From sequence record MN850630.1: a stretch of 64,000 bases of DNA. One strand, written 5' to 3'. Shown piece by piece: positions 24,111 through 57,371 of this stretch (position 1 is its first letter; each line of letters begins with the position of its first letter). This stretch comes from Escherichia phage naam. The notes under the pieces were generated by a model. The model had not been told where the DNA came from, did no database searches, and was given only the letters and a program-made list of their open reading frames with translations. A program made the position numbers and the translations under genes.

Positions 24111-24457
24111 CCTTTTATAGTAATAATCCAACCACTACCTTGAAGTTGTGGCGCAGCTTTCCAAGTACTCGATCTGTTTTTCGTTTCAAAGATTGAATTT
24201 TCTGAAAATTTTTCTCGATAAATTTCTCAGTACTCGATCTGTTTTTCGTTTTCTGAATCGGATTTTCTGGAAATCGTTCCGGCTCTCGACCTGAAATTTT
24301 TGGGGACGAAATCGATTTTTCGTTTTCAGAAATGGATTTTTAAAATTTCTATATGGGAATATTTTAGTGGATACTATTTTATAGGAAATTGTTACGGAGG
24401 GTAATTAGCGTGCTAATTAAATTTATTAAATGCGAGGAGTTCTCATTTAGAATTTTG

Positions 24458-24470
24458 AATGATAATCATT
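24458..24470. promoter_or_regulatory. Fur-box-like palindrome AATGATAATCATT
   Basis: Perfect 13-bp palindrome matching the core of the Fur consensus GATAATGATAATCATTATC (15 of 19 with flanks); a second GATAATGATAAC copy lies at 24588..24602. Confidence 0.3.
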
Positions 24471-24487
24471 CTCGTTTGCAGAATAAC

Positions 24488-24529
24488 GGGCAGGCCCGGT
24501 GATTGTCTCCCGGCCCCTGTTGCCCCGGC
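24488..24529 (+). repeat. GC-rich conserved element (core GGTGATTGTCTCCC)
   Basis: Related copy at 24621..24670 (GGTGGTTGTCTCCCCC) and an inverted copy at 33922..33947 (GGGGGAGACAATCACCAGGCCTGCC). Confidence 0.5.
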
Positions 24530-24866
24530 TTGTTATTATAGTATCACACAGGACAAAGAAGGCAAGGATTTTTTGCATAAATTTTTAAATGATAATGATA
24601 ACCGTTCTCATTTTATGCAGCGCCCATCCCCGGTGGTTGTCTCCCCCGTCACCGGTGCCTGCCGTCCTTTCGATAGGTATATTGTGCCACCTGGCGGGGC
24701 CGCTGTCAACACCTTTTCAAAAAATTTTTCTAACCTGATGCGCTAACCGTTGCAACCTGGCGGGGCCAGCCTGGCAGGACCTAACTGACCAGGTGGGAGA
24801 GGGTGAAATCTTGCAAACCTGGTAGGCCCATGCTGTAGGGTAAACAATTGAAGAGGAGGTACAAAA

Positions 24867-25109
24867 ATGAAAGGTAATGCTACTCACCTGGGAAATGTAG
24901 CGATTAATGACGCTGAGGCTATCACCCTGGTTGAAAAGGCTATGGCGGGAGCGTTGGAACATAAAGAAGAGTACGAAAAAATGATGGTTAACCTGGCAGG
25001 GGCGGCGGCTGGAGAATTCTGCCCAAAAAATAATTCTAACCAATGGTTGACAGCTCGGATAGTTCTGTTATTCTTATCCTCGCAAGGTGAACAACACCAC
25101 ACTAATTAA
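24867..25109 (+). CDS. hypothetical protein
   Basis: GAGGAGG RBS; 80 aa. Confidence 0.6.
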   Translation: MKGNATHLGNVAINDAEAITLVEKAMAGALEHKEEYEKMMVNLAGAAAGEFCPKNNSNQWLTARIVLLFLSSQGEQHHTN

Positions 25110-25126
25110 CAGAGAGGATAAAAATC

Positions 25127-25324
25127 ATGAACGCCTACGGAATTAAAGTACGTCGCAACACTCGCCAGGCCGTCACCGATCAAATGGTTTGCCAGGTGGA
25201 CGTAACCATCAACAACGGGCAAGGCCTTTATAAATTCCGTCGCGGTCAGAGCTATACCCGGCAACAGCTTAATCGTTGCGCCCTGACAAAAGGCCAGATC
25301 AACCACTGGTTTAATAAAAAATAA
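25127..25324 (+). CDS. hypothetical protein
   Basis: AGAGGA RBS; 65 aa; basic. Confidence 0.55.
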   Translation: MNAYGIKVRRNTRQAVTDQMVCQVDVTINNGQGLYKFRRGQSYTRQQLNRCALTKGQINHWFNKK

Positions 25325-25327
25325 GTA

Positions 25328-25356
25328 TTGACATATAGTCCGACACCAAATACACT
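25328..25356 (+). promoter_or_regulatory. sigma70-like promoter
   Basis: TTGACA, 17-bp spacer, TACACT. Confidence 0.5.
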
Positions 25357-25388
25357 AAAAGCACAAAAGACACTAAGAGGATAAAATC

Positions 25389-25787
25389 ATGAAAACCACT
25401 ACCTTTAATTTTGATAATGCGGACTTTTCTTTTTCTGATGTCAAGAACTGCCGCCGTGATCGTGGATTCTACAAGGCTTATAATCTGGTTGGCCTGGACG
25501 ATGACAATAATTTGCACGAAGTAGCTGAGATCCGGTATTATGCCGCCGCCAGCGGGAACACTCACTACTGCGTGTTTTGGATTCACGACAACAAGAACAA
25601 TAAGTACGGTTATACTGGCGGCAAGGCGAGCGGTCACGGTTACGATAAAGCTAACGCAGCACTTGAGAGCGCATTAAATGCTATGGGGATCACTGCCGAC
25701 GGCTGGATCTACGAAGAAGAGTTTTTGTCGGCACTTGCTGACCACCTGGGCTATAAAAAACACATTGTAACATGCGCCCACGAATAA
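25389..25787 (+). CDS. hypothetical protein
   Basis: AAGAGGA RBS; 132 aa. Confidence 0.6.
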   Translation: MKTTTFNFDNADFSFSDVKNCRRDRGFYKAYNLVGLDDDNNLHEVAEIRYYAAASGNTHYCVFWIHDNKNNKYGYTGGKASGHGYDKANAALESALNAMGITADGWIYEEEFLSALADHLGYKKHIVTCAHE

Positions 25788-25793
25788 AAATCA

Positions 25794-25821
25794 TTGACAC
25801 GCTGCAAAATTTAAGTAAACT
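25794..25821 (+). promoter_or_regulatory. sigma70-like promoter with 5' leader hairpin
   Basis: TTGACA, 16-bp spacer, TAAACT; leader stem-loop GGCGGGAATGTTTCCCGCC before the RBS. Confidence 0.5.
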
Positions 25822-25869
25822 AGACACAAAAGGCGGGAATGTTTCCCGCCAGCACAAAGGAAAAAGATC

Positions 25870-26265
25870 ATGAATAAGAACGTACGCCGCATCATGAACG
25901 AACTGGCAAACGATGAAAAAATTATTGATATGCATTTGGTCAACATTTGCCGCCGTTGTGTAACATATAACAACCGCGCCGCAAAAGCGCGTGAGATGAA
26001 CGCAAAAGGCACCTTAAAGCCCTTTCAGGTGGTTGTAAAATCTATAACTAGCGCAGCAGGCCAGGCGCAGGACCACAACAACGAGAGCGCTAATATTGAT
26101 CCGTCTTACGTAATGAAACGGATCCGGACTTGCAAGAATAAAGAGCAGGTATATAACGTCATAGATTGGCTGGACTCCCTGGGCGATGTGGTTTACAATA
26201 GGTTTTCTGCAGCTATCGAGATCCAGCTTGACAGATTGGACGGGAAAGTACTAAAAACTTATTGA
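25870..26265 (+). CDS. hypothetical protein
   Basis: AAGGAAAAAG RBS; 131 aa. Confidence 0.6.
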   Translation: MNKNVRRIMNELANDEKIIDMHLVNICRRCVTYNNRAAKAREMNAKGTLKPFQVVVKSITSAAGQAQDHNNESANIDPSYVMKRIRTCKNKEQVYNVIDWLDSLGDVVYNRFSAAIEIQLDRLDGKVLKTY

Positions 26266-26267
26266 GT

Positions 26268-26311
26268 TTATTTTTAGATGGCCTTGACACCAGGGCCATC
26301 AATAAAGTAAA
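26268..26311 (+). promoter_or_regulatory. conserved 44-bp promoter cassette, copy 1
   Basis: TTATTTTTAGATGGCCTTGACACCAGGGCCATCAATAAAGTAAA; inverted repeat GATGGCC/GGCCATC flanks the -35 TTGACA; near-identical copies at 26889 and 30628. Confidence 0.55.
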
Positions 26312-26345
26312 CTAACCACAGTTGAGCGGAAAAGGAGGCTTAAAG

Positions 26346-26465
26346 ATGAGCACTACACGCCAGCACACAAAGGTAACCATCATCGTTTGCATCATTGGGT
26401 ACATCCTGGCGCAAATGTTGATGGGTAGCGCCAACGGTGTCGCAAAATTTTTCTTAAACTTTTAA
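26346..26465 (+). CDS. small hydrophobic peptide (39 aa; not in ORF track)
   Basis: ATG 7 nt after AGGAGG; MSTTRQHTKVTIIVCIIGYILAQMLMGSANGVAKFFLNF. Confidence 0.5.
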   Translation: MSTTRQHTKVTIIVCIIGYILAQMLMGSANGVAKFFLNF

Positions 26466-26493
26466 TTGACAAGCTAACTTAAATCGATATAAT
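26466..26493 (+). promoter_or_regulatory. sigma70-like promoter (consensus)
   Basis: TTGACA, 16-bp spacer, TATAAT. Confidence 0.6.
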
Positions 26494-26544
26494 AAGCACA
26501 TAAACGGGAAAACTTCCCAGAACACACAAAAGGAGAAAAACACC

Positions 26545-26886
26545 ATGACTACTATGACCGCCTCAGAAAAAGCTATGCAGATCGCTGAACTGAAAAAACA
26601 GATCGCAGACCTTGAGAATAAGATCGATAACTTTGAAATCGACGAGGACAAGTACGACGAAAACTATGATGAATGGTTAGACGAGATCTACGGCGAAATT
26701 ATGATCGGAAACATTTCTTTTCTTCCGTCGCGTATCCTCAAGGAGCTAGATCCTATCGCTTACCGCTGCGGATTTAGCGACTACATCGACAGCCTGGATA
26801 TTGAGGACGATGAAGAATACCAGGAATTACAGACAGAGTTAGAAGAAGCAAAAGAAGAGCTTGCGGAGCTGGAAGAAAACGAGTAA
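26545..26886 (+). CDS. highly acidic coiled-coil protein
   Basis: AAGGAGAAAAA RBS; 113 aa, strongly D/E-rich. Confidence 0.6.
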   Translation: MTTMTASEKAMQIAELKKQIADLENKIDNFEIDEDKYDENYDEWLDEIYGEIMIGNISFLPSRILKELDPIAYRCGFSDYIDSLDIEDDEEYQELQTELEEAKEELAELEENE

Positions 26887-26888
26887 GC

Positions 26889-26932
26889 TTATTTTTAGAT
26901 GGCCTTGACACCAGGGCCATCAATAAAGTAAA
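26889..26932 (+). promoter_or_regulatory. conserved 44-bp promoter cassette, copy 2
   Basis: Identical to copy 1 across the palindrome and -35. Confidence 0.55.
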
Positions 26933-26975
26933 CTTTATACTGTTAACACTGAACTAATGCATAGGAGTTAAAACC

Positions 26976-27221
26976 ATGGCAGCACTAATCACCAAATATT
27001 ATGCCCCTACCAACACCAAAAGCGCCCGTATCATGGTAAAAGGCTTCGGACGTAAAAAGGTGTACACCTGGGATTATGCCTTAGACACGGAAGACAACTA
27101 CACCAACGCGATGACCGATTTTATTAATGATCTGAACACGCGGATCTTGACAAATTATAAAATTACCGATATTGCCTATATAGGGGAAGGCGGGATCTGT
27201 TTTGTCGGTATCGTCAAATAA
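26976..27221 (+). CDS. hypothetical protein
   Basis: TAGGAG RBS; 81 aa. Confidence 0.6.
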   Translation: MAALITKYYAPTNTKSARIMVKGFGRKKVYTWDYALDTEDNYTNAMTDFINDLNTRILTNYKITDIAYIGEGGICFVGIVK

Positions 27222-27296
27222 GCTGTTTTTTCGGTGGTCCTGGTAGCAGGGCCATCTATAAAGATAGTTTATCAATACAATGAAAGGAGAAAGTAC

Positions 27297-27650
27297 ATGA
27301 TCAGCGGGGCAAGTTTTATTATTGGCGCTATTGCTACGGCTTTAATTGTAAACAAGATCCAATCTAAAAACGAAAAAGATAGCAACGCCCTTACAGAATA
27401 CCCGTTTTGGGTATTCAACGACAATGAAGACTATATTATCAAGTACAAGAATGAGAAGGGCGACCAGGTAACACCGCGACCGATCCCGGCTTACAAGATG
27501 CAAGAAACACTATACCGCCTAAAGGCTGGAGGCGCAAAAATCGTAGACTTTTGGGGATACGATCACACAGATCAGGAAGTTATAAAGCGCCGTATCCGGG
27601 CTATTCAGGCCAATATTGAAGTTAGCAAGGGGGGAATATATGAAGATTAA
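27297..27650 (+). CDS. hypothetical membrane protein
   Basis: ATG after AAAGGAGAAAG; N-terminal helix ASFIIGAIATALIV; track ORF 27234..27650. Confidence 0.55.
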   Translation: MISGASFIIGAIATALIVNKIQSKNEKDSNALTEYPFWVFNDNEDYIIKYKNEKGDQVTPRPIPAYKMQETLYRLKAGGAKIVDFWGYDHTDQEVIKRRIRAIQANIEVSKGGIYED

Positions 27651-27837
27651 TTTTGAGAAGATTGTAAAGCGATCTCATGATTCCGAAGAGCTGCCGGAAC
27701 GCCGCCAGCGCAACAATAAACTGAATAAGCCAAAAAGATTTGGGAAGATCTGGCGGAATCATTATGATCGCAAATTACCGGGCCTGCTTTTGGAACGTGA
27801 ACGACAGGCGGAACGATACCGCCACAAAGGCAAATAA
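27640..27837 (+). CDS. hypothetical basic protein
   Basis: ATG after GGGGGGA; Arg/Lys-rich; track ORF 27616..27837. Confidence 0.45.
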   Translation: MKINFEKIVKRSHDSEELPERRQRNNKLNKPKRFGKIWRNHYDRKLPGLLLERERQAERYRHKGK

Positions 27838-27845
27838 CAACCAAC

Positions 27846-27874
27846 GCCCCGCCATTGTGCGGGGCTTTTTATTT
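27846..27874 (+). terminator. rho-independent terminator
   Basis: Stem gccccgc / gcggggc with cattgt loop, then TTTTTATTT. Confidence 0.7.
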
Positions 27875-28018
27875 CTATCCTACGAATAGCGCCCCTGGTT
27901 GGCCCTGTAAGCGCCAAAAAGGCCCCACCTATACAATCGCCCCCCTTTAACCTGAAAACATCGCTTAGGGCCGTTTTATGGCGTTAAAAATATCATTGAC
28001 AGTGATTTTATTTAAAGC

Positions 28019-28046
28019 TTGACATCTTAAACAGGTTAGCTATACT
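28019..28046 (+). promoter_or_regulatory. sigma70-like promoter
   Basis: TTGACA, 16-bp spacer, TATACT; a second TTGACA lies 23 bp upstream. Confidence 0.55.
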
Positions 28047-28078
28047 AACCACATCAAAGAGAGAAAGGAGTAAACGCC

Positions 28079-28339
28079 ATGCGTAAATTAAAAAATTTTG
28101 ATAAAGTTGATGTTGTCCTGAATAATTTTTACTACTGCAACAACAAGGCCATTTGGTGGCGTGATAGTTCCACCGATAAAGTTAAAGCTCGCTTTCTCCA
28201 AGGGCACTGGCAAGGCCGTCCAGTGATTAAAATACTGGGGCAACTGGTAGCGTTTAAAAATTGCCGCCGTGTTGATGACGTTGAAGAGATCTTGAACATT
28301 TTACGCCACAATAATTTAAAAAATAGTGTTGACAAGTAA
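28079..28339 (+). CDS. hypothetical protein
   Basis: AAAGGAG RBS; 86 aa. Confidence 0.6.
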   Translation: MRKLKNFDKVDVVLNNFYYCNNKAIWWRDSSTDKVKARFLQGHWQGRPVIKILGQLVAFKNCRRVDDVEEILNILRHNNLKNSVDK

Positions 28340-28356
28340 ATCTCGATAAGTATACT
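28329..28356 (+). promoter_or_regulatory. sigma70-like promoter with 5' leader hairpin
   Basis: TTGACA, 16-bp spacer, TATACT; leader GGCGGGAAAACTTCCCGCC. Confidence 0.55.
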
Positions 28357-28413
28357 TAAACACACAGGCGGGAAAACTTCCCGCCACTAACAAAGAAAAT
28401 AGGAGAAAATATC

Positions 28414-29037
28414 ATGACCACCGTTAACATTACCACAGGTTACAATTTATCTTTCGACGTGCTGACCGACGAACAAAAAGAAAAAGCTATTGAAATGGTC
28501 CGCGAAAGAGAAGAACACAGCGGGGATAATTTTTTTGCAGAAAGTGTAATTGAACACTATAAAGAATATGTCTTTCCAGAGTACGGCCTTGAAGATACCG
28601 AAGTACGTTGGTCCGGCTTTTGGTGTCAAGGCGATGGCGCGTCAATCAGTGCTGAAAACGTGGATTTAGAAAAATTCTTGCGTAAAGTAAAGGCCCTGAC
28701 CAAGTTCCGATCAATTCGTCACTTGTTCGGCACAATGCACGATGGCGAGTTATCAGCCAGTGTTGAACGTATCCCGTTTAGCCATTATCATCACGAAAAC
28801 ACAATAGGAGGGTGCATCGATACTAATTGGCTAGACCTGACCACCAAGCAAGAGGACAAAGTTGAAGAGCTGGAAGAGCTGATCACCGAGACGGTACGGG
28901 AGCTATCACGCAAGGTTTACGTAGACCTGGAGGAGGCCTATCTTGAACAGTTTACTACCGAAAACCTGATCGGCCTTATTGAAGCCAATGATTGGCGGTT
29001 TGATGTGGATGAATATGGGGAGATGAGTTTTTCATAA
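28414..29037 (+). CDS. hypothetical protein
   Basis: TAGGAGA RBS; 207 aa. Confidence 0.65.
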   Translation: MTTVNITTGYNLSFDVLTDEQKEKAIEMVREREEHSGDNFFAESVIEHYKEYVFPEYGLEDTEVRWSGFWCQGDGASISAENVDLEKFLRKVKALTKFRSIRHLFGTMHDGELSASVERIPFSHYHHENTIGGCIDTNWLDLTTKQEDKVEELEELITETVRELSRKVYVDLEEAYLEQFTTENLIGLIEANDWRFDVDEYGEMSFS

Positions 29038-29045
29038 ATAAAGTG

Positions 29046-29073
29046 TTGCAATAATCTAAAAACCTGCTATATT
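29046..29073 (+). promoter_or_regulatory. sigma70-like promoter
   Basis: TTGCAA, 16-bp spacer, TATATT; leader hairpin GGGGCGAGATGACTTGCCCC. Confidence 0.45.
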
Positions 29074-29127
29074 AAAAACTCAAGGGGCGAGATGACTTGC
29101 CCCCCACAAAACAAAGAGGAAAACATC

Positions 29128-29508
29128 ATGAAAAACACTACTAAAGCTATTGACACCGTTATGTTTAACCTGGTTACATTCCGTGAAGATATGAAAGATC
29201 TTCCACGTGAAACAGTGTGCGACCATATCGAAAACTATCGCAAACTAATCAAAGAGTTGCCTTTAAAACGTGACCAGTACGCGGCTAACGCTATGCTTAA
29301 CGCCATGATCAAAAAGATGATCCAGTGTGATTTAACTCTGGCCTATGATTATGCAGGCGGTCGTTTTGCAGTATACAATCAGCCCGTGCCCGGTATGAGC
29401 ACCACCGAAGAATTGCACGCGTTAAATCTGAAACAAGATGTATGGGATAACATGCCCCGCGTGGTGGTGTGGGCAGAAAGCGGAAAGATTTACGGCGATA
29501 ATTTTTAA
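29128..29508 (+). CDS. hypothetical protein
   Basis: ATG after AAAGAGGAAAA (track ORF 29092..29508). Confidence 0.6.
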   Translation: MKNTTKAIDTVMFNLVTFREDMKDLPRETVCDHIENYRKLIKELPLKRDQYAANAMLNAMIKKMIQCDLTLAYDYAGGRFAVYNQPVPGMSTTEELHALNLKQDVWDNMPRVVVWAESGKIYGDNF

Positions 29509-29572
29509 TCAGGTAACAGGCGGCATATTTGCCGCCTTATTGTTAAACAGAACTGCAAAAGAGGTACATAGA

Positions 29573-29944
29573 ATGGAATTTATTATTTTGGCTGTAGTAG
29601 TTGCCTTGTTCAACGCCTGGATCGCTGGCAAGATGGGTAGATCCGCCTTTTTATGGTTTATTATATCTATTTTCCTGGGGGTGGTTGCAACTATTGTACT
29701 TGTTATCCTTGCAATTGTTGACAAGGGGAATAATAGAAAGGGTAAAGTATTTTCAGACCTGTACGACGCTCAAACATTTGTCAACGCCTACTACAGCGAT
29801 CTTCCAGTCTCCCTACGTTGCAGCCTTGCACAACAGGTTTTCGATGAAGCTAAAACCAGAGATCACGCCCATGAGATTTGTTTAACTGAGGCGGATCGCC
29901 TATTTGAGAGGAATAGAAAATATGTGGACCAGCCGTTTAAATAA
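29573..29944 (+). CDS. hypothetical membrane protein
   Basis: ATG after AAAGAGG; two hydrophobic helices (FIILAVVVALF, LWFIISIFLGVVATIVLVILAIV); track ORF 29438..29944. Confidence 0.55.
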   Translation: MEFIILAVVVALFNAWIAGKMGRSAFLWFIISIFLGVVATIVLVILAIVDKGNNRKGKVFSDLYDAQTFVNAYYSDLPVSLRCSLAQQVFDEAKTRDHAHEICLTEADRLFERNRKYVDQPFK

Positions 29945-30163
29945 TGCCACGTTAATTAACCCCTTTAGTGAAGATTTGAAGCCAGCCGCCTGGCGGGATG
30001 GATTCAATAACGAAAGCTTTATTTTCAGGCCTGATCTTAAGGAATTTTATAACAATGGATCGAACAACGACAGAGATAATTTTTCTTGTAATGTGCGTGG
30101 TGATAATACTCCTGGGGGCCATTGCAAACCACGTCACTGCTAACAGGAGGAAAGGGGGAGACG

Positions 30164-30283
30164 ATGACACCCAAGGATAAGCCCCGCACCGATAAGGCGC
30201 GCCGTGTTATGGTATGGCTTGAGATCATCGCCCTTGAAATATTGTTAGGCGTAGGGATGTATTTTATCGCTGTAAGTAACTGA
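30164..30283 (+). CDS. small hydrophobic peptide (39 aa; not in ORF track; uncertain)
   Basis: ATG downstream of AGGAGG; hand-translated MTPKDKPRTDKARRVMVWLEIIALEILLGVGMYFIAVSN; ends just before a hairpin. Confidence 0.35.
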   Translation: MTPKDKPRTDKARRVMVWLEIIALEILLGVGMYFIAVSN

Positions 30284-30423
30284 TAACGGCCCCGATCCCT
30301 GGGGCCTAACTTTTCAAATTTTTTTCTCCCTGAGTGTTGCAATCCGATCCAGAATATGGATAATAACAATCAACGGGGAGACACTCCCCACCGCATAGAC
30401 AAAGTTCCAAAAGGAGAAACAAA

Positions 30424-30624
30424 ATGAGCAACAATATCCGCGTTATTAACTTCAAAAAAGAAGAAAAAATTGCCGTGCTGATTGACGGTCAAGAAATCTT
30501 TAAAGGTGATTATGAAGATCATCAAACGGCGATTAGTATCACTCGCGTGATTGGTTACCATAATTTTTACCCTCAAGGCGCTGAGGCAGCAGTAAAACGA
30601 ATTAAAGAGATTGTAGGCCTGTAA
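30424..30624 (+). CDS. hypothetical protein
   Basis: AAAGGAGAAA RBS; 66 aa. Confidence 0.6.
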   Translation: MSNNIRVINFKKEEKIAVLIDGQEIFKGDYEDHQTAISITRVIGYHNFYPQGAEAAVKRIKEIVGL

Positions 30625-30627
30625 AAT

Positions 30628-30671
30628 TTATTTTTAGATGGCCTTGACTCCAGGGCCATCAATAAAGTAAA
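30628..30671 (+). promoter_or_regulatory. conserved 44-bp promoter cassette, copy 3
   Basis: Same palindrome and -35 as copies 1 and 2, with TTGACT. Confidence 0.55.
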
Positions 30672-30715
30672 TTTAAACCCTGTTAAAATAATCAGTGCAA
30701 AAAGGAGTAATGATC

Positions 30716-31015
30716 ATGTTTATCCAGGCTAATAATCTTTATTTCTTTGATGGTCAGATCGTAGACGGCGTGGAGGTGGAAATAACCGGGTGCCCTGGCG
30801 GTCAGGTTATGACTTTTCGGAATAATGCCTTTGATGATTCTCATATCGTTATGAGAATGGAAGTTAGTAAGCTGGATGACAAGAAAACACTTATCGACTA
30901 TTCCGTCAAAGATCATCCAGACTACCACATGATCTATGGTGATTTGTGCATTGTTGACCGTGACAAGGTGAACGGCATTGTTATAGCCATTGTGAACGAT
31001 GTTTTCTCTGAATAA
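30716..31015 (+). CDS. hypothetical protein
   Basis: ATG 8 nt after GGAG (track ORF 30695..31015). Confidence 0.55.
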   Translation: MFIQANNLYFFDGQIVDGVEVEITGCPGGQVMTFRNNAFDDSHIVMRMEVSKLDDKKTLIDYSVKDHPDYHMIYGDLCIVDRDKVNGIVIAIVNDVFSE

Positions 31016-31074
31016 TTCCGGCAAATGATGCAAAATAAGGCCCCTAGCAGGGCCTGCAGCGATATAATCACATA

Positions 31075-31108
31075 AAGGCTATGCGGTTGCATGGCCTTTA
31101 TTATTTTA
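31075..31108 (+). terminator. rho-independent terminator
   Basis: 10-bp stem (aaggctatgc / gcatggcctt, one G-U pair) then TATTATTTT. Confidence 0.6.
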
Positions 31109-31239
31109 GCGTTACAGCGGCCCCAAGGCGCTTAAAAAATTTTTAAAGAAGTACTTGCATCAAGTCCTACAATATGGATAATAGGACGTGTCAGGGGGGC
31201 GGCCCCCAATCATTAACCGGATAGATAGGAGTTAAAATC

Positions 31240-31524
31240 ATGGCTATTGTCACCGTTGGCGATGTAGTGGAAATGGAAGCAAAATACTTAAAAGCGGGTA
31301 TGCATATCCTACGGAATGATCAAGAATTGTTATTAACGATGGTAGACTATAATCCCGGCCAGGATTATCCAAGCATCGACTACTTTTTTGAGTATGTTGA
31401 TGAAGAATTGAAAGAGGATGAGACTTATCAGGGTGAATTCTGCAATTTCTTTTGCCCTGATGAGGTTGTAAAAGTTATCTATCAACCTGGCGTACCTTTC
31501 CCGCTGCACGCTATCAATAAATAA
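31240..31524 (+). CDS. hypothetical protein
   Basis: TAGGAG RBS; 94 aa; followed by hairpin GGCGGGGCC gaaaa GGCCCCCGCC. Confidence 0.6.
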   Translation: MAIVTVGDVVEMEAKYLKAGMHILRNDQELLLTMVDYNPGQDYPSIDYFFEYVDEELKEDETYQGEFCNFFCPDEVVKVIYQPGVPFPLHAINK

Positions 31525-31586
31525 ACCTGGCGGGGCCGAAAAGGCCCCCGCCTGAAATTATGAAAAATAAAAAGAGGCAAACTATC

Positions 31587-31817
31587 ATGATGGAACAAAT
31601 TAAACGCGCTGAGGCTATTAATGGCAATGTGATCTATTTTGTCAGCAATAACGAAAAAGGCGTACCATATGCGGCGGTAATAGTACAGCCTGACGGCAAT
31701 TATTGGTTTACTGTATACGGATCTTATTCTTTCGGGCGTCCGGTGCATGATAGAATTTTAAAAGTAGCGAACCCAACCGGGAAGAATATCACAGCAGAAA
31801 AATTTTTTGAAAAATAG
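31587..31817 (+). CDS. hypothetical protein
   Basis: ATG after AAGAGG (track ORF 31560..31817). Confidence 0.55.
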   Translation: MMEQIKRAEAINGNVIYFVSNNEKGVPYAAVIVQPDGNYWFTVYGSYSFGRPVHDRILKVANPTGKNITAEKFFEK

Positions 31818-31845
31818 TTGACATGGCCTTATAAGACTGTAGAAT
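31818..31845 (+). promoter_or_regulatory. sigma70-like promoter
   Basis: TTGACA, 16-bp spacer, TAGAAT; the track ORF 31818..32072 begins on the -35 TTG. Confidence 0.55.
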
Positions 31846-31892
31846 ATAAATCAAAGGGGCAAGCCCCATCAACGGCAAAGAGGATAAAAATC

Positions 31893-32072
31893 ATGGCTAT
31901 TATTGCAAAGACTGAGATCGTAGGCTTAGATTCTATTCTCCTCGCATATGAGGAAGCTATAGAAATGTATGTGGTTTCCTATGGTGAGTATATCCGTGAA
32001 TATAAATCTATTGATCTGGCTTTTGAATGTTATATTCGCCAGGTTAATAAAGCGTACGATGATTATCGTTAA
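31893..32072 (+). CDS. hypothetical protein
   Basis: ATG after AAAGAGGA, downstream of the promoter; 59 aa. Confidence 0.5.
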   Translation: MAIIAKTEIVGLDSILLAYEEAIEMYVVSYGEYIREYKSIDLAFECYIRQVNKAYDDYR

Positions 32073-32163
32073 AATAGTTTGACAACAAACAACCATCTAA
32101 CAAAGCATAACACATAAGGTGGTAGAATGATCCGCCACCTGGAACAAAGAAGAGGTAAACACC

Positions 32164-32409
32164 ATGAAAAGCAATAAAGGTTATAACGGTTACAAAAACA
32201 AAACTCATTGGAATGTAAGCCTTTGGATTAATAACGATGAGTCCTTGTACCGGTTGGCCCAAGGCTTTATTAACGCTAATGCTAATCGTAATGATGCGGC
32301 GCGGGATATGATGCTTTTTCTGGAGCTAACCGGACAAGATAAGACCCCGGACGGCTTCAAGTACAGCACTACGGCGATCCGTGCCGCGATGGTTGGAATG
32401 AAACACTAA
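32164..32409 (+). CDS. hypothetical protein
   Basis: AAGAGG RBS; 81 aa. Confidence 0.6.
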   Translation: MKSNKGYNGYKNKTHWNVSLWINNDESLYRLAQGFINANANRNDAARDMMLFLELTGQDKTPDGFKYSTTAIRAAMVGMKH

Positions 32410-32486
32410 AAGCACATAGCCGCCTTACCCTGGGGCTGTAGTAGCGGTCCCATGAATAAGGTTACTAACAGAAGAGAATAAACACC

Positions 32487-32591
32487 ATGAAACAGAAATT
32501 AATTGATGCGGTGATCCTGGTTATTGCCCTGGGTATTGGCCTGATTGCAACCATGGCTAATGTGATCTTGTCTTCCAACGGTATCGGGTGA
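32487..32591 (+). CDS. small membrane peptide (34 aa; not in ORF track)
   Basis: ATG after GAAGAGAA; MKQKLIDAVILVIALGIGLIATMANVILSSNGIG. Confidence 0.4.
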   Translation: MKQKLIDAVILVIALGIGLIATMANVILSSNGIG

Positions 32592-32600
32592 GGTTGGCAA

Positions 32601-32816
32601 ATGATCACTAACAAAACAGGCAAAACGGAATTTTTACGCAACTTACAGATCGGCAAGCCTGAGATCTGGTATTGCACTAAAACACCACGTGACGAAATGA
32701 AAGACTTCACCGCCACGCTGCAACGGGTAAAGATATCCATCACGCAGAAAAAGGCCTTATTAGTGGTGGAAGGTGAGATCCCCCAAACCGTTGTTATAGT
32801 TGAACGTACAGCATAG
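32601..32816 (+). CDS. hypothetical protein
   Basis: 71 aa. Confidence 0.5.
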   Translation: MITNKTGKTEFLRNLQIGKPEIWYCTKTPRDEMKDFTATLQRVKISITQKKALLVVEGEIPQTVVIVERTA

Positions 32817-32907
32817 TTTAATTTATACCGATACCTGAAAATTAACCAACAAGGCATAAACAGGCTGTTACCGCCGCCTTAAACGTAGCAGAAAGAGGAT
32901 AGACACA

Positions 32908-33192
32908 ATGAAAAAGATGATCGCAGTGGTTGCCCTGGTTGTTGGACTTAATGCGCCTGTAATGGCTAAAGAGCTGGCAAAAGAGGTTAATCTAACGGAT
33001 ATTCATGCCGTCAATCGAATCGGGGTTACTTATCGCTTATGCCTTGCCGCTAAAACTTTTAAGGACGGCACGACAGAGTACTACGGATTCGAGGGTGTCC
33101 GGTGCGGTGAACTTGCTCGCGACCTTAAGGAAGATCCAGACCTGGAGGATCTGCCCATCACCGTAAACGGGAAAACTTACGTAAACCGTTAA
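32908..33192 (+). CDS. secreted or periplasmic hypothetical protein
   Basis: AAAGAGGA RBS; signal-peptide-like N-terminus MKKMIAVVALVVGLNAPVMA. Confidence 0.6.
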   Translation: MKKMIAVVALVVGLNAPVMAKELAKEVNLTDIHAVNRIGVTYRLCLAAKTFKDGTTEYYGFEGVRCGELARDLKEDPDLEDLPITVNGKTYVNR

Positions 33193-33337
33193 CCATGAGA
33201 AAGATAATTATTACCATGGGGATCGTGGCGGCAATGTTGGCGATCTTTCCCTTTATGGTTAGGTATGTGCTGATTAATGTTGTCCTGGTAGTCAGCGATC
33301 TGGTGTTATATATTAACTCATTGTTTTAGGCGCGATA

Positions 33338-33529
33338 ATGACAGCGGAAGAAGTTAAAAAAGTACTGGCGGTACTGCGTTATCATAATCATTGCAAGGTG
33401 AAGAATGATCCTGATTATCTTGATTCATCCCTTGAAGAGGATACACTACAAGCCATAAGCAACATGCAAGAATTGCTTAAGCGTATGACAGAGAAAAACC
33501 GACCGGACTACATAGGGGGTAAAATATGA
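33338..33529 (+). CDS. hypothetical protein
   Basis: 63 aa. Confidence 0.5.
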   Translation: MTAEEVKKVLAVLRYHNHCKVKNDPDYLDSSLEEDTLQAISNMQELLKRMTEKNRPDYIGGKI

Positions 33530-33837
33530 TCGCTATTACGCCAACCGTTTTAGATTGGTATCGGCAACGCATAGCGCCTCCGCTGGCTATCTTCAAAGAT
33601 GCGGAAGCAAAACAACGCCGGATCTCAATACATGAGATCATCAACCTTAACGCTGGAGGCACACCATACCGCCCAGGACCTGGCCGTGAGATGGACAATA
33701 CGTTAGCGATCCTGAAGATACGCCGTAAACGGTCCTCCCTTACGCTGGACTCATTACACACAATGCAGCCTCCGTTCCAGGTGACCGGGAAACGGATCGC
33801 CAGGTCCTGGACAAAGGCCAATGATCGGACCGTATAA
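33526..33837 (+). CDS. hypothetical protein
   Basis: ATGA coupling; 103 aa. Confidence 0.5.
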   Translation: MIAITPTVLDWYRQRIAPPLAIFKDAEAKQRRISIHEIINLNAGGTPYRPGPGREMDNTLAILKIRRKRSSLTLDSLHTMQPPFQVTGKRIARSWTKANDRTV

Positions 33838-33971
33838 ATAAAAGTGTTTTGGTACTGATTTTGGGGTTGACTTGTTCGGCCCCTTTTGCTATTCTTATTA
33901 AACGGGCGGCACTTGGGAACAGGGGGAGACAATCACCAGGCCTGCCTGTCATATAAGAACTATAAAAACCG

Positions 33972-34000
33972 TTGACATCTGCCATGGGGTGAGGTAACAT
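33972..34000 (+). promoter_or_regulatory. sigma70-like promoter with leader hairpin
   Basis: TTGACA, 17-bp spacer, TAACAT; leader GGGGCAAAAGTGCCC. Confidence 0.5.
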
Positions 34001-34054
34001 TTATCTTGAAGGGGCAAAAGTGCCCACACAACAACCAGAAGAGAGGAAAACATT

Positions 34055-34327
34055 ATGTCAAGCTGGATTAATCAAGAAGTCGAATCACGTTTTAATGCTA
34101 TTTGGGATCTCATCGAAAAAGAGGACGGAACATCAAGCCCTTATCTCAATAATCTTGAATTCCATTTCGTGGAAGCGATGAACGCAGAACATGATCACGA
34201 AGGTGGTGCGGATGAATTCGCTAAAGGATATGGCTTCAACAATGCCAACGAAATGATCGAGGCGGTTGTACTCCAGGCTGAGGAAGATTATCAATTAAAA
34301 ACGCTTGAATTCTGCCGCCGTAAGTAA
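34055..34327 (+). CDS. hypothetical protein
   Basis: AGAGAGGAAAA RBS; 90 aa. Confidence 0.6.
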   Translation: MSSWINQEVESRFNAIWDLIEKEDGTSSPYLNNLEFHFVEAMNAEHDHEGGADEFAKGYGFNNANEMIEAVVLQAEEDYQLKTLEFCRRK

Positions 34328-34389
34328 TAAGATAATGACACGGGCCAAAAGGCCCACTAAACAAAAACCACATAAAGAGGAAAAACATC

Positions 34390-34653
34390 ATGAAACGCCT
34401 TGATCAGCTCAAATTAGTTCAATATATGGCTTATCGTGTTCTTGAAGTCCAGAAAGGTAGCAAAAAAGAGGTTTGCGAGAAAGCTTATAAGATCTTCACT
34501 CGCAAAAAAGATGACTGGATGCTACGCCAGACCAAAAAGGCTGACATCTTGGGGTACCTGGAAGAAGAGATCCGCCTTGAAGAGCAAGAAGAGATCCGCC
34601 GTAGTGAGGCAGATTATCAGGCAGCTTGGGAAAACTGGATGAGCAACAAATAA
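34390..34653 (+). CDS. hypothetical protein
   Basis: AAAGAGGAAAAA RBS; 87 aa. Confidence 0.6.
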   Translation: MKRLDQLKLVQYMAYRVLEVQKGSKKEVCEKAYKIFTRKKDDWMLRQTKKADILGYLEEEIRLEEQEEIRRSEADYQAAWENWMSNK

Positions 34654-34719
34654 TACAACAAGTTACGGTCAGGGGGGTAATAAAGCCCCTTGATCGCATA
34701 AAAATTATGCCATCTCTGG

Positions 34720-34748
34720 TTGACAGGGATCGGCAGTTTTGCTATATT
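34720..34748 (+). promoter_or_regulatory. sigma70-like promoter
   Basis: TTGACA, 17-bp spacer, TATATT. Confidence 0.55.
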
Positions 34749-34797
34749 CTTTTTTGAAGGGAAGTTGTAAGAAAATTAACTAAGAGGTAAAAACACC

Positions 34798-35217
34798 ATG
34801 AACATTAAATCTAATAATCCGGCATATAGCTTTGATAACGCTTTTTGTCACGGTCCGGCGGCGAAAGGATTCGAAATCGATGGTAAACTAATTATTGTCA
34901 ATGTTGACGGGGAAGAGGTTGCAGTATATCCGGTGGCAGACGTAAAAAGCCGTTTACAATGCCGCATGGATGTTACCGCCTATCAGCTTGATCCGGTCCG
35001 CATAGTTGCCCTGGTCCTGGAAGAAGAAATTAAAGCCATGCACCATAGCAACAGATTTATTGGTGACGCGCAGGATAATATGAAAGTATGCCGCCATAAA
35101 GTTAATGAAGTGCTTAAAGAGTACGGCTATAAAGATCTTATGATCAAACGTGAGGAAAAATTCCGCTACCGTAACGACCTGGCAAATCGGATTTTTGAAA
35201 TATACGAATCATTATAA
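34798..35217 (+). CDS. hypothetical protein
   Basis: AAGAGG RBS; 139 aa; last gene of the plus-strand block. Confidence 0.6.
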   Translation: MNIKSNNPAYSFDNAFCHGPAAKGFEIDGKLIIVNVDGEEVAVYPVADVKSRLQCRMDVTAYQLDPVRIVALVLEEEIKAMHHSNRFIGDAQDNMKVCRHKVNEVLKEYGYKDLMIKREEKFRYRNDLANRIFEIYESL

Positions 35218-35235: not shown

Positions 35236-35260
35236 AAGGGGCTTAGGCCCCTTTCTTTTT
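35236..35260 (+). terminator. rho-independent terminator ending the plus-strand block
   Basis: Stem aaggggc / gcccctt then TCTTTTTG. Confidence 0.65.
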
Positions 35261-35878
35261 GTCTGCTCTTCCCCCTACCATAAACGGCCCTACCTGGCAA
35301 GTGGAATAATTGACGAGCCATCAATCCTACACACTGTACAAACATACATGTAAAATAGCTATTGCATAACCTTTCATTGTGTGGTAGCGGTGCTATTTTT
35401 TACCAGTTTTCCTTCCAAAATTGCACGTAATGCCGCTATTGCACAAATTTTAACCTGATGCACATCTCCAATATCTTGTCAACAACTAAAAATCTTTATA
35501 AGTCATACACTTACACAGCATCGAAAGCGTGTTCTACGCGAAAAATCGAGTATAACTATAGCCGCCAGATCTCAGAATTCACGTACGCACGCCATTCTAT
35601 AGCCTGCAAAGTATTTATTCCAACCACAGAATAACGGAATAGTCAATACCTGCATAAAATAATTATTAGTGTAAACTGCATAACATAAATCAGCTCAGGT
35701 GTCAACATTTTTCGTAAACAGTCCGAAATTATCACGATGAGTTATCATAAACAGAGAAATCTTTAGTCGTCTAATGTTTACTGTACATTACTATACTGAC
35801 TGGAATCATTAGATGACTAAGAGAAAGATAAGAAATAATTAATAATGTAATTGTTTTACCTGTAACAATAAGGCAACT

Positions 35879-35898
35879 ATGCAAACGAATGGCATGGC
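35879..35898 (+). repeat. 20-bp direct repeat ATGCAAACGAATGGCATGGC, copy 1
   Basis: Exact second copy at 36140..36159. Confidence 0.7.
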
Positions 35899-36015
35899 GC
35901 GACGGAGTCGCGACATAATATAAAAGCAGTAACCATCACCCCCGTGATAGTTTGTCTGCAATCTATTAATCAGATCATAGTTGCCTTGTATTCAGTTAAT
36001 CATGACATGATAAGC

Positions 36016-36047
36016 AAGGCAACTATAGATCTTCTAATAGTTGCCCT
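36016..36047. repeat. palindromic site GGCAACTAT-N10-ATAGTTGCC
   Basis: Further copies of the arm at about 35870 (AAGGCAACTAT) and 35977 (ATAGTTGCCTT); operator-like or iteron-like. Confidence 0.55.
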
Positions 36048-36170
36048 GCTTTTATATTATGTCATAGAAACACCCGAAGGGGTGACCAAAGGTCACCTGG
36101 CATAGCCAGTGAAAGATTATTAACTTGCTAATAGTTATCATGCAAACGAATGGCATGGCTGATTATCGGT

Positions 36171-36257
36171 GTGTAAACAGTCAATCATGTAAATGGTTAG
36201 CATGTGAACAATCAGAAATGTAAACAATCCAGTGTGTAAACTAATAGGTGTGTAAAA
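36171..36257 (+). repeat. cluster of (G)TGTAAAC(A) repeats
   Basis: GTGTAAACAG, ATGTAAACAA, TGTGTAAAC and GTGTAAAAG within 90 bp; further GTAAACAG at about 35714, 36511 and 37221, and on the minus strand at about 36368. Confidence 0.55.
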
Positions 36258-36851
36258 GTGTCATGTTGTGTCAGTTAGGTCACATTATGTCAGACAAGTT
36301 TTTCTCCTCTTTGTCAAGTGCTGCATGAAAAATTTACAAGCTTGTATGGTAGCATTTTTGCGGCCCTGTTTACATTCAGTGTTGTATGTATAATCCTTGT
36401 TGTGTGGGCGTTTAGACGTCTGGACGGTCAGAAGTCTGCAGGTTAATATCTAATCTATCGGCTGCTAACTATATCCCACACAAATAGTAAGAAATATAAT
36501 TGTTATGTGCGTAAACAGTAACCCATGTTATCAATCCCTGTATGTATCGCCAGTGGTGCGCATAATGGGTATTATGTTAAATTGCCCGTAATGATAACAG
36601 TTCTCACAATGATAGGTATTCTCATTCACCCCCACAAGATAGGTTGCAAATGTTGTGCCACTGTGTGAACGGCCTGGCCTATTAATTTGCCTCACTGCCT
36701 TGATATTTGAGAATTATTATAAGAATGAGAAGTATTCCCATTTCGTCCGCCTGGCAGCACTCCTGTAGGTCAGGTCAAAATCGTGGTAGAACTAGACCTA
36801 TCCGGATATTTCTGGCTGACTCTTCAGGTCTGTGTGGGAAAAGCCAACCTC

Positions 36852-36866
36852 TCCGGCGGGGCAGGG
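36852..36866 (+). repeat. 15-bp GC-rich direct repeat TCC(C)GGCGGGGCAGGG, copy 1
   Basis: Second copy at 36999..37015; CTCTTCAGG recurs at about 36820, 36904 and 37351. Confidence 0.5.
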
Positions 36867-37710
36867 GGAGGTCAATTAAAAAATTTACGTGGTGTATGAA
36901 GCGCTCTTCAGGTAAGGCAGGTATTATGGGATGAAACCCGCTTCAGGCAATGATATTTGTGGGTGTGATATTTGCTGGAAGGCCAGATATGACGGGACTC
37001 CCGGCGGGGCAGGGGTAGTACAGACAGGGAAAATATGGGGATGTAGTTGGGGAAATTGATCAGACAGGTAGAGTATGGAATATGTTACAGGTATGTTAAA
37101 TATGGAGGTTGAATATCTGTAGGATTTGTGTGTAAAATCAAAGACTTAAGGGGTGTTGTGGTATTTTCTATAAATAATTCAAGTTTAATAGGCAATATTT
37201 GTCTCTATCCGCTTTGTGTGGTAAACAGATTCAGATGAGATTGGTTTACAAGTGTATACATAATATACAAATTAAAGATACAAGAAACCCCCCTCCCCCT
37301 TCGGCTACCATTCACCTTTTCCTCTGACTGGTACTTAAACACTTATTCAGACTCTTCAGGTTATCACCCATATATCATATGGCAGTGACTGGTGTCCTCC
37401 GGCCCCTCTTTCGTCACCCGTCCGCTTCGCCATGCTAATGCCATAGCTAATGGTTCGGTTGTTCACCCTGTTCACTCAGGTGTATCTCTATACCCCTTCA
37501 AACCGAAGAGAACAGAAAACCCGAATTACTCGGTAAAAGAAAAGAGAAGAACTTAATTTTATCAGGATAGGCAAGAATGTCAAGGCATGACTGCTCACTA
37601 AACAAGCAAACAGTCATGTGTGGGAGGTAAGTGATTGTGGTGGTAGGAAATTTAGTTGAAAGATGTGTTATAGGTGCTTCCAGCACTTTAGCCGGGCAGC
37701 TAATTGTGTG

Positions 37711-37926
37711 TCAGTCCAGCGGTTCATCCTCTACTTCACTGAAATCAATGTTCATGGTCTCTTCCCAACCATCGATCTCAGCACAAGAGTGGAGTTCTTT
37801 AGGGTTTACTCCCAAAGCCTCAGCAACAGAGTCTATATTTAACACCTCTGGCAGGTATGATTCATCGAATTCAAGGTAAATCAGGCCACGAGTGTTGTCA
37901 GCTCCACCAAATATCTCTATCTTCAT
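37711..37926 (-). CDS. small acidic protein (MK[IV][EK] paralog family)
   Basis: MKIEIFGG N-terminus, acidic C-terminus; most downstream gene of the minus-strand block. Confidence 0.55.
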   Translation of the reverse strand: MKIEIFGGADNTRGLIYLEFDESYLPEVLNIDSVAEALGVNPKELHSCAEIDGWEETMNIDFSEVEDEPLD

Positions 37927-57096: not shown

Positions 57097-57371
57097 TTTT
57101 TCTCTCCAAAACCATTCTTAACAAAAGAGATGAAATCGTCGGCACCGCCTATATGGACACTGTCAAGATCGCTTTCTAAGAAGATCTGCGGCAACGTTCT
57201 GGGGACAATTGGACTGCACTTCTCAATAAGCTCTTCTTTTGTGTAGCCCTCGCCAAGTGTCTTATATACAAAAGGCAGACCTTTGCTGATTGCAAATTCT
57301 TTTGCTCTGACACAATGTGGGCAGTTATCCTTACCGTAAATGATGATGAAAAAAGATTTTTCGCAGCTCAT
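57093..57371 (-). CDS. glutaredoxin-like redoxin (NrdH/Grx-type)
   Basis: Active site CPHC in IYGKDNCPHCVRAKEF; 92 aa; between nrdB and nrdD. Confidence 0.7.
   Translation of the reverse strand: MSCEKSFFIIIYGKDNCPHCVRAKEFAISKGLPFVYKTLGEGYTKEELIEKCSPIVPRTLPQIFLESDLDSVHIGGADDFISFVKNGFGEKK

Follow-up and report, generated by a model that had tools for sequence, protein, structure and literature searches.

A conserved, oriented promoter-proximal element, usually followed by a Fur box, in rV5-like and phAPEC8-like myoviruses: a candidate leader RNA module

Results

Two intergenic loci of an rV5-like phage carry a repeated element

The DNA analyzed here (the window) is a stretch of 64,000 nucleotides (nt) of Escherichia phage naam (MN850630.1) in which a short GC-rich element recurs at two distant intergenic loci, as copies c1 and c2 on the minus strand (24480-24534 and 24615-24674) and as copy c3 on the plus strand (33902-33952). 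Because every copy shares one polarity, lying just 3' of a sigma70 promoter in the GAGACAA orientation, c3 can be read as the sense copy, on the plus strand and in agreement with the direction of the genes. The first-pass annotation had described c3 as an inverted copy of the tandem ones; its opposite orientation is confirmed, and the fixed polarity in relatives makes c3 the sense one. Judged by its sequence the window comes from an rV5-like E. coli phage of the genus Vequintavirus, and over the 11 kb that span both loci it shares 93-96% identity with many rV5-like Escherichia phages. Its plus strand encodes rIIA/rIIB, a Dda-like helicase, a primase-helicase and DNA polymerase between positions 1 and 24,000, followed from about 24,870 to 35,200 by a series of small genes of unassigned function. 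Sigma70-type promoters are numerous there, a promoter scan giving 40 where 23 were expected. The rV5 genome paper treats the whole stretch as one host-polymerase transcription unit and lists promoters, and the element goes unmentioned there.

The repeat itself was first recognized as GGGGGAGACAATCACCAGGCCTGCC at 33922-33946, the reverse complement of which is found at 24483-24511 with 26 of 29 positions matching (inverted repeat I3). Within it the 14-mer GGTGATTGTCTCCC is exact at 24498 (plus strand) and 33924 (minus strand) and has one mismatch at 24632 (plus strand). When up to two mismatches were allowed, the window contained 4 matches against 0.34 expected, a number reached in 0 of 100 shuffles; the fourth (30376-30389, two mismatches) is an unrelated terminator hairpin, absent from the results of the family model. 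A sequence-only covariance model run over the 64 kb returned exactly three copies, at 24468-24553 (minus, c1, 74.7 bits), 24605-24683 (minus, c2, 43.2 bits) and 33881-33965 (plus, c3, 65.7 bits), with the next match at E = 0.6. This model was built partly from the window copies themselves; independent support for the family comes from BLAST matches to other phage genera and from a model built from other genera only, which recovered c1 at E = 8e-6. The shuffles and the family model rule out a chance match. The repeat noticed at 33922 is thus real and has homologues in several genera, which disposes of the possibility raised with it that it was fortuitous, with no further copies and none in relatives. 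Its length was underestimated: the element measures about 50 nt, with a 12-nt core, and not some 25 nt.

Copy c3 was delimited from the sequence, the inverted repeat and the family model. It consists of a 5' arm ACGGGCGGCA, a small hairpin (CUUG-GGAA-CAGG), the core GAGACAATCACC at 33926-33937 and a 3' arm CCTGCCTGTCAT. Upstream, a terminator-like plus-strand hairpin, GGGGTTGACTTGTTCGGCCCC followed by TTTT (33863-33883; terminator scan and sequence), terminates the preceding gene (33526-33837) and at the same time, like the hairpins of repeat family D1 at other early promoters of the window, holds the -35 of c3's own promoter. This sigma70 promoter, detected by the promoter scan and in alignment A1, reads TTGACT, a 17-nt spacer and TG-c-TATTCT (33867-33895, plus strand), and the transcript is predicted to start near 33902. 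Downstream of c3, positions 33953-33971 match the Fur motif at best at 9 of 14 positions and are probably a decayed remnant of the Fur box that follows other copies. A second plus-strand sigma70 promoter, TTGACA-17-TAACAT (33972-34000; promoter scan and rV5 annotation), is homologous to rV5 P168 and directly precedes the first gene 3' of c3 (34055-34327, plus strand), which encodes a 90-amino-acid homologue of rV5 ORF167 (phrog_7287, E = 3e-47). Promoter-like sequences had been noted on either side of the repeat, and these two promoters bear this out. Copy c3 precedes P168 and an early operon of three or four genes. A terminator scan from c3 to 35000 found none, and the sole hairpin, read by eye at about 35238-35262, closes this short operon.

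At the other locus, c1 was identified from the sequence, by repeat search and with the family models, and c2, the most diverged copy, from the sequence, by repeat search and with the family model. In plus-strand reading their cores are GGTGATTGTCTC (24498-24509) and GGTGGTTGTCTC (24632-24643). The candidate promoter of c1, read from the sequence on the minus strand (24535-24565, score 8.5), comprises TTGCCT (24565-24560), a 19-nt spacer and TATAAT (24540-24535). That of c2, also on the minus strand, is TTGACA-17-TG-CACAAT (24681-24709; promoter scan, 10/12, TG present). Each copy is followed by a Fur box, which the first-pass annotation had missed. Fur box 1, TGATAATCATTCTCG (24460-24474), was found by motif search, matches TGATAATNATTATCA at 12 of 14 positions and lies about 24 nt from the c1 core, with a second Fur-like palindrome nearby (about 24423-24443). 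Fur box 2, GATAATGATAACCGTTCTC (24590-24610), matches the E. coli 19-mer at 16 of 19 positions (24591-24609) and contains two overlapping 7-1-7 matches. From this arrangement c1 and c2 would start two leftward transcripts, which would cross the Fur boxes and then reach an iteron-like region adjacent to the replication genes.

Several further repeats were observed around these loci. Three direct repeats of about 65 nt (AGTACTCGATCTGTTTTTCGTTT...) occupy 24155-24340, in an ORF-free gap (ORF, open reading frame) of about 750 nt that separates the replication-gene module from the small early genes; at the equivalent place in phiTE (locus L004, 5700-5860) stand six GGGTCTCGATC repeats. The repeats at 24155-24340 are iteron-like in appearance, and a replication origin or some other protein array could be situated there. 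Two occurrences of CCTGGCGGGGCC, separated by about 70 nt, lie within 24690-24790, in the interval from c2 to the first of the small early genes (24867). Further along, a 49-nt early-promoter cassette with its -35 TTGACA in the loop of a GATGGCC/GGCCATC hairpin is present four times (26265-26313, 26886-26934, 27221-27269 and 30625-30673) and resembles the promoter-early stem-loop (PeSL) cassettes of T4-type phages. Short hairpin repeats of 5' untranslated regions (UTRs) lie at 26493 and 28357 (GGCGGGAAAACTTCCCGCC).

The element belongs to a family with a common oriented layout

Each locus was compared by blastn with 50,697 phage records. The flanks matched in Vequintavirus only. A short element-bearing block, with 77-89% identity, was also found in Phapecoctavirus, Justusliebigvirus, Certrevirus, Seunavirus and Mydovirus and in unclassified Serratia, Acinetobacter and Salmonella phages, where the flanks are unalignable. 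A 16-mer scan of viral contigs returned mostly one prophage coding gene, and scans of IMG/VR and metagenomes with specific patterns added about 15 loci. Reading some 25 loci together with a few viral and metagenome contigs yielded about 50 distinct copies from Vequintavirinae, Stephanstirmvirinae and Vibrio phage PWH3a-P1. The last was reached through a distant, AT-richer metagenome copy and shares with the others the promoter, the core, the CCCGCTAT arm and the Fur boxes, which lead there into a gene on the same strand. The c3 locus is single in each genome (240 places in 240 records), and genomes have two loci with two to three copies in all.

Alignment A1 revealed a common oriented layout: a sigma70 promoter, the core GAGACAAWCACC, the 3' arm CCTGCCCGYTAT and, usually, a Fur box. 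The core positions AA.CACC are invariant in all 33 aligned sequences, the core reading GAGTACAAAACACC in Seunavirus and Mydovirus, and T1, A2 and T6 of the -10 are invariant or nearly so. Over the 50 copies the best sense-strand sigma70 score averages 8.75 out of 12, against 6.0 for background and 6.67 for the opposite strand, and reaches at least 8 in 38 copies compared with 12% of background windows. The distance from the -10 to the core ranges family-wide from 24 to 37 nt. All c3-type copies, whatever their subfamily, have 30-31 nt, those of c1 type 25-29 nt and those of c2 type either 28 or 36-37 nt. In c3 and c1 the 5' arm begins 6-7 nt past the -10, which is the expected transcript start.

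The c3 locus is mosaic. Its promoter in the window is similar to the one of Certrevirus CR9, that of rV5 type equals the promoter of Phapecoctavirus ESCO13 at 43 of 44 positions, and JES2013 joins an rV5-type 5' half to a window-type 3' half; the cassette therefore moves by recombination. It might then be a mobile promoter cassette without a function of its own, a patch of homology spread by recombination in the manner of PeSLs, a notion that also draws on the placing of the c3 -35 in a hairpin as in repeat family D1. Such a patch would not, however, retain an invariant 12-nt core, a polarity and a Fur box from Vibrio to Escherichia phages, and the element is restricted to two loci per genome whereas hairpin-promoter repeats are numerous. 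We regard this explanation as very improbable.

Two related observations were made in other genera. In the Certrevirus-like phages CR9 and SSBI34 (loci L006, 1565-1650, and L007, 1562-1650) the interval from the core to the Fur box contains a partial duplication of the 3' arm (CCGGACCTGCCCGC... then ...CCGGACCTGGGCC); the duplication in these c3-type copies could permit alternative pairings. Outside Vequintavirus a second, strongly conserved non-coding block, ...CCGGCGATYCACCTTCC...GTTAGCCCCGCCTTTTCGCCGTGGGGTGGCG..., lies 3' of a minus-strand TTGACR-17-TATACT promoter (L003, 6190-6320; L004, 6150-6280; L134, 430-520; L151, about 760-800). It occupies the position of c2 in the window and may be a distant paralogue of the element.

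The element is non-coding and matches no known repeat or RNA

Two ORFs, 24459-24746 and 33740-34000 (minus strand), overlap the element, and both translate it as TGRPGDCLP, which had been put down to an artefact of the repeat. We concur. The first starts inside a Fur box, meets a stop after 7 codons in two relatives (L128 and L140) and carries a frameshift in a third (L155); the second merely shares the repeat. A protein-coding identity was rejected on these grounds, and we take the element to be non-coding and the overlapping ORFs to be artefacts. In several GenBank records a hypothetical protein of some 92 amino acids is annotated over the stretch that comprises Fur boxes 1 and 2 together with c1 and c2 (24459-24746 in the window; L002, 2189-2467; L154, 580-855; L155, 577-855; L156, 577-855; L157, 577-864), probably a spurious gene call.

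A search of Rfam gave nothing at gathering score in the window and nothing overlapping the copies at E up to 5. A tRNA-like identity was rejected since ARAGORN found no tRNA in the window or in the record of Klebsiella phage K45PH128C2 (OY978796.1). In the latter, tRNA-Met and tRNA-Ile are annotated right over the Fur box and the element (L148, 611-764), and because ARAGORN finds no tRNA there this annotation is probably displaced or wrong. Host repeats of the repetitive extragenic palindrome or bacterial interspersed mosaic element (REP/BIME), enterobacterial repetitive intergenic consensus (ERIC) and miniature inverted-repeat transposable element (MITE) kinds were considered as well. The element was absent, by blastn, from 5,426 complete E. 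coli genomes and matched once, on a 4-kb contig of a metagenome-assembled genome, among 185,579 species genomes; this near-absence rules out a host intergenic repeat.

A ToxI or pseudo-ToxI mimic was suggested by the likeness of GGTGATT.. to the start of ToxI and by the relative phiTE. Unlike ToxI, the copies are not 36-nt tandem units, and no ToxI-like repeat was present in any locus examined, including 12 kb of phiTE around its copy, when searched with 36-nt tandem repeats like AGGTGATTTGCTACC..., which we take to represent ToxI. A nut-like site was discarded as no boxA (CGCUCUUUA-like, at most two mismatches) occurs within about 300 nt of any copy. A G-rich R-loop or G-quadruplex primer was dismissed on a sense-strand GC skew that averages just +0.09 and is negative in six members, a CsrA-type GGA loop on the absence of GGA from W70, L143 and phAPEC8, and a sigma-dependent pause at GACAAT on its failure for the half of the family that has GACAAA.

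Fur boxes accompany most copies

Fur boxes were scored against the 19-bp consensus GATAATGATAATCATTATC or the 7-1-7 motif TGATAATNATTATCA. The consensus has one match in the window, Fur box 2, against 0.04 expected, and the 7-1-7 motif with up to three mismatches occurs 23 times in the whole window against 5.6 expected. A Fur box scoring at least 11 of 14 lies within 100 nt downstream of the element in 38 of the 50 copies, compared with 3% of background windows. In nearly all c1- and c2-type copies it stands 21-23 nt from the core. Among c3-type copies, those of Certrevirus-like phages keep a 12/14 box, 53 nt past the core, and those of Vequintavirus and Stephanstirmvirinae have lost it and retain the element. 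The only promoter overlapped by the Fur box is a weak candidate (score 7.5) of the opposite strand, and the box lies about 75 nt past the strong promoter.

In the relatives phiTE, phAPEC8, EC152 and PWH3a-P1 two to three near-consensus Fur boxes stand in tandem. The window has a second cluster of Fur-box-like palindromes at 36126-36140 and 36590-36730 (AATGATAACAGTTCTCA, AATGATAGGTATTCTCATT and TGAGAATTATTATAAGAATGAGAAGTATTCCCATT), inside a 2.6-kb ORF-poor region (35300-37900) that also contains GCAAACGAATGGCATGGC (twice) and TAGTTGCC and that apparently corresponds to the box marked 'non-coding' on the map of the rV5 genome. The minus strand encodes, at 54958-60817, an iron-dependent NrdA-type ribonucleotide reductase and NrdD. 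Another possible host-state signal, an exact GTAAA-N5-GTAAA, is found right upstream of the -35 of the c1-type promoter in Phapecoctavirus, Certrevirus, Seunavirus and Mydovirus (L003, 6164-6178; L004, 6117-6131; L134, 397-411; L135, 852-866; L137, 851-865; L138, 833-847; L149, 732-746; L150, 717-731). We take this to be the CpxR box consensus; no exact copy occurs in the window. In the literature found, the one phage-borne Fur box reported was that ahead of the sit operon in temperate lambdoid phages, and our literature searches returned no description of one in a virulent phage genome.

Pairing potential modestly favours an RNA over a DNA site

The reading we prefer, held with about even confidence, sees in the element a promoter-proximal leader RNA module: it would be the leader transcribed from a conserved, oriented regulatory cassette of rV5-like and phAPEC8-like myoviruses. 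A common regulator-binding site or a repeated RNA structural module had been proposed at the outset. A regulatory or structural module shared by distant intergenic regions is supported, and between the two forms the evidence leans to RNA, moderately, with a DNA operator as a serious rival.

Folded singly, many copies have the core at the tip of an inner helix, CCGG/CCGG or GGNG/CACC, and form an outer helix as well. A further small hairpin is present in copies of c3 and c2 type and often ends in a GNRA loop (CUUG-GGAA-CAGG, CCUG-GCGA-CGGG or CCG-GUGA-CGG); the sole variations in this hairpin produce G-U pairs. In the window the predicted folds reach -21.6 kcal/mol for c1 (z-score -1.43 sense vs -0.12 antisense), -20.1 kcal/mol for c2 (-1.73 vs -1.41) and -17.5 kcal/mol for c3 (-1.35 vs -0.38), and across family members the mean z-score is -1.03 in sense and -0.36 in antisense. 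Both the wobble pairs and the z-scores favour sense RNA, modestly. With a structure model derived from eight non-Vequintavirus copies, 87.6% of the cells of the model-fitted alignment are paired, against 38-51% when the partners are slid, and three outer pairs switch among G-C, G-U and A-U. The many G-U pairs (in BIS47, SSBI34 and L130) would be A-C mismatches on the opposite strand. The dissimilar 5' arms AUAGCGGG, AUGGCG, GGCAGGCA and GGGCA all complement one conserved 3' arm.

A number of points weigh against a leader RNA module. RNAalifold run on a plain MAFFT alignment yields no consensus structure. The copies of phAPEC8, ESCO13, CR9, ChuuTotoro and W70 fold no better than shuffled sequence, and the window's c3 has two mismatches in its outer helix. 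Double compensatory changes are few (3 pairs and 5 cells, equalled in 60 of 500 shuffles) in an alignment that was itself fitted to the structure. Primary sequence, in the core and the 3' arm, is what is conserved most, which a DNA-binding protein explains equally well. The spacer of the c1 promoter, at 19 nt, is longer than optimal, and c1 and c2 lead into a region without annotated genes. The searched literature holds no transcript data for any phage of the group, and the binding partner and downstream function are hypothetical.

Were the element a DNA operator, the 12-bp core with the downstream TGCC and TATTC would form a double-stranded site for a DNA-binding protein of phage or host, which would sit at about +25 to +50 and shut off or block the three host-dependent promoters, and the GC-rich arms would be incidental. 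The better conservation of primary sequence than of pairing is what such a site would produce: all 33 sequences keep AA.CACC, and the arms differ among copies, with mispairing in some. The near-constant spacing of core and Fur box in c1- and c2-type copies, the constancy of promoter-core spacing within types and the presence of other protein sites as neighbours (Fur boxes, and the GTAAA-N5-GTAAA box in relatives) agree with it too. The core is, however, neither palindromic nor repeated in phase, and its distance from the -10 varies by up to 12 bp among types (25 to 37), therefore showing no fixed geometry with polymerase. Differences between arms mostly preserve pairing, through G-U on one strand alone, and sense folds are better than antisense folds. 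Compared by eye with what we take to be the DnaA, IHF, CRP, PhoB, marbox and Chi sites, the element had no convincing likeness to any. Altogether an operator is possible, and we think it the less probable form by a good measure.

Relation between the two loci

Copies c1 and c3 carry the same 3'-half allele (gcct or g(g/t)gt) in all seven Vequintavirus genomes compared, which could reflect gene conversion or selection for a common partner. This agreement bears on a further possibility, a trans-antisense or convergent switch in which plus-strand RNA from c1/c2 would pair with the c3 leader under iron-dependent control. The RNA would come from read-through of the replication operon or from a Fur-repressed promoter, TTGAAT-18-CAGAAT, with the Fur box as its spacer; locally, the Fur-controlled rightward promoter and the leftward sigma70 promoter would face each other about 50 bp apart and be mutually exclusive. 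Predicted duplexes are far stronger than self-folds (-72.6 kcal/mol for c3-c1 and -66.3 kcal/mol for c3-c2, against about -18 to -20), but any inverted repeat predicts a strong duplex. The allele match, for its part, is explicable by gene conversion and has a chance of about 1 in 21 before shared ancestry is considered. Opposite orientation of c1 and c3, 5-12 kb apart, apparently occurs in other genera, each case combining two related genomes. The Fur box is placed as in a Fur-repressed promoter, with the candidate -10 a constant 13 nt from the core, yet this promoter, the sole plus-strand candidate there, is weak and unconserved (mean score 6.67), position 2 of its -10 not being A in phiTE or BIS47. 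Moreover, c3-type copies of Vequintavirus and Stephanstirmvirinae keep the element after losing the Fur box. We consider an antisense switch unlikely.

Discussion

If the element is a leader RNA module, as we favour, its action can be outlined as follows. Immediately after infection host sigma70 polymerase would initiate at the promoter ending 24-37 nt 5' of the core. The first 50-55 nt of the RNA would fold back, the 5' arm pairing with the conserved 3' arm (..UGCCCGYUAU) into an interrupted hairpin that sequesters the 5' end and presents the nearly invariant (G)AGACAAWCACC at or beside its tip. We infer that this tip serves as the recognition determinant for a putative trans-acting partner, which may be a protein, the polymerase itself or another RNA. 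In the presumed ancestral layout the hairpin would be followed by one to three Fur operators, at which Fur, the iron regulator of the host, would block read-through or control a second promoter. Copy c3 would be such a leader with a decayed Fur box, ahead of P168 and the early operon, and c1 and c2 would head leftward transcripts that pass the Fur boxes and enter the region of the three 65-nt iteron-like repeats. The leader runs into a gene in PWH3a-P1 and at the c3 locus of the window. Candidate downstream effects are stabilization, put-like modification of polymerase, titration of a protein and transcription of an origin.

A bolder proposal can be built on this outline. The cassette would be a host-state sensor of virulent myoviruses. 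It would produce a structured immediate-early non-coding RNA, Fur would gate the extension of this RNA or its antisense control, the leftward copies would fire into the iteron region and the conserved loop would dock a phage factor. With the CpxR-like GTAAA-N5-GTAAA box that the promoter also has in Certrevirus, Seunavirus, Mydovirus and Phapecoctavirus, these features would couple early transcription, or the activation or priming of the replication origin, to iron and envelope stress. We offer it as a speculation that is doubtful as a whole. The regular association with near-consensus Fur boxes suggests that strictly virulent phages read the iron status of their host.

Coliphages of the rV5-like and phAPEC8-like kinds have broad host ranges and are widely seen as candidates for therapy, and their early regulation is essentially unmapped. 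Conservation of a 12-nt core from Vibrio to Escherichia phages implies that the module must be under strong selection. The element supplies precise coordinates for predicted early transcript starts, and it flags a GenBank ORF as probably spurious.

Literature searches turned up no account of the element. It was set beside the known systems that it resembles. The put RNAs of HK022 are cis-acting antiterminator leaders, and their antitermination depends on the beta' zinc-binding domain of RNA polymerase. They are sequence-related, structured and made by host sigma70 polymerase, are present in two copies behind different early promoters, and in the case of putL extend from +2/+3 of the early PL transcript (PMC9378689). 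The element is similar in lying directly behind an early sigma70 promoter with structure from about the transcript start, in having multiple copies and in being non-coding; like put, it is recognizable without a nearby gene product. The comparison was made with the published description of put. On that basis put is about 70 nt long with two long stem-loops and a triplex, whereas the element has about 50-55 nt and one interrupted hairpin (c1), to which c3 adds a small GNRA hairpin. A Fur box, usual with the element, is absent from put, and c1 and c2, unlike put, lead no operon. As no terminator was found between c3 and 35000 and the sole later hairpin closes the operon, there is no obvious need for put-like antitermination.

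The nut sites of lambda and P22 are likewise promoter-proximal RNA hairpins in early transcripts. Their boxB, bound by N, is a 5-bp stem that closes a GNRA-like pentaloop. The loop of P22 boxB is GACAA, and the core of the element holds GACAA or GAUAA; the closing A-U pair exists only where W is U, however, and the predicted loops have 7-10 nt. In contrast to the nut hosts, the phage carrying the element is virulent.

PeSLs of T4-type phages resemble the cassette in placing early sigma70 promoters in stem-loops between small early ORFs and in showing signs of recombinational shuffling. A genome has many PeSLs, and what is repeated in them is the promoter with its hairpin. A repeated -35 in a stem-loop, which is characteristic of PeSLs, is found in the c3 promoter (TTGACT in the 33863-33883 hairpin) and in family D1. 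The element, by contrast, is a separate, presumably transcribed module of about 50 nt on the 3' side of the PeSL-like cassette, with two to three copies, an invariant core and a Fur box.

Fur-repressed promoters and small RNAs such as ryhB share with the element a near-consensus Fur box (12-13 of 14) beside a short non-coding transcribed region. Such promoters overlap the Fur box, whereas here the well-supported promoter fires toward it from about 75 nt upstream, and no intrinsic terminator follows the element, unlike in Fur-controlled small RNAs. By eye the element bears no resemblance to what we take to be the RyhB sequence. Stabilizer hairpins such as that of the ompA 5' UTR are also comparable, the hairpin lying 0-3 nt from the predicted 5' end in c1 and c3, and other early transcripts of the phage begin with hairpins as well (repeat family D10). 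Stabilizers need no conserved loop, however, whereas the loop is the most conserved part of the element, and c2, in contrast to them, would have about 12 unpaired nucleotides at its 5' end. In kind, then, the element is a promoter-leader regulatory cassette and not a member of put, nut or PeSL, from which it is set apart by its oriented coupling to a Fur operator and its deep conservation.

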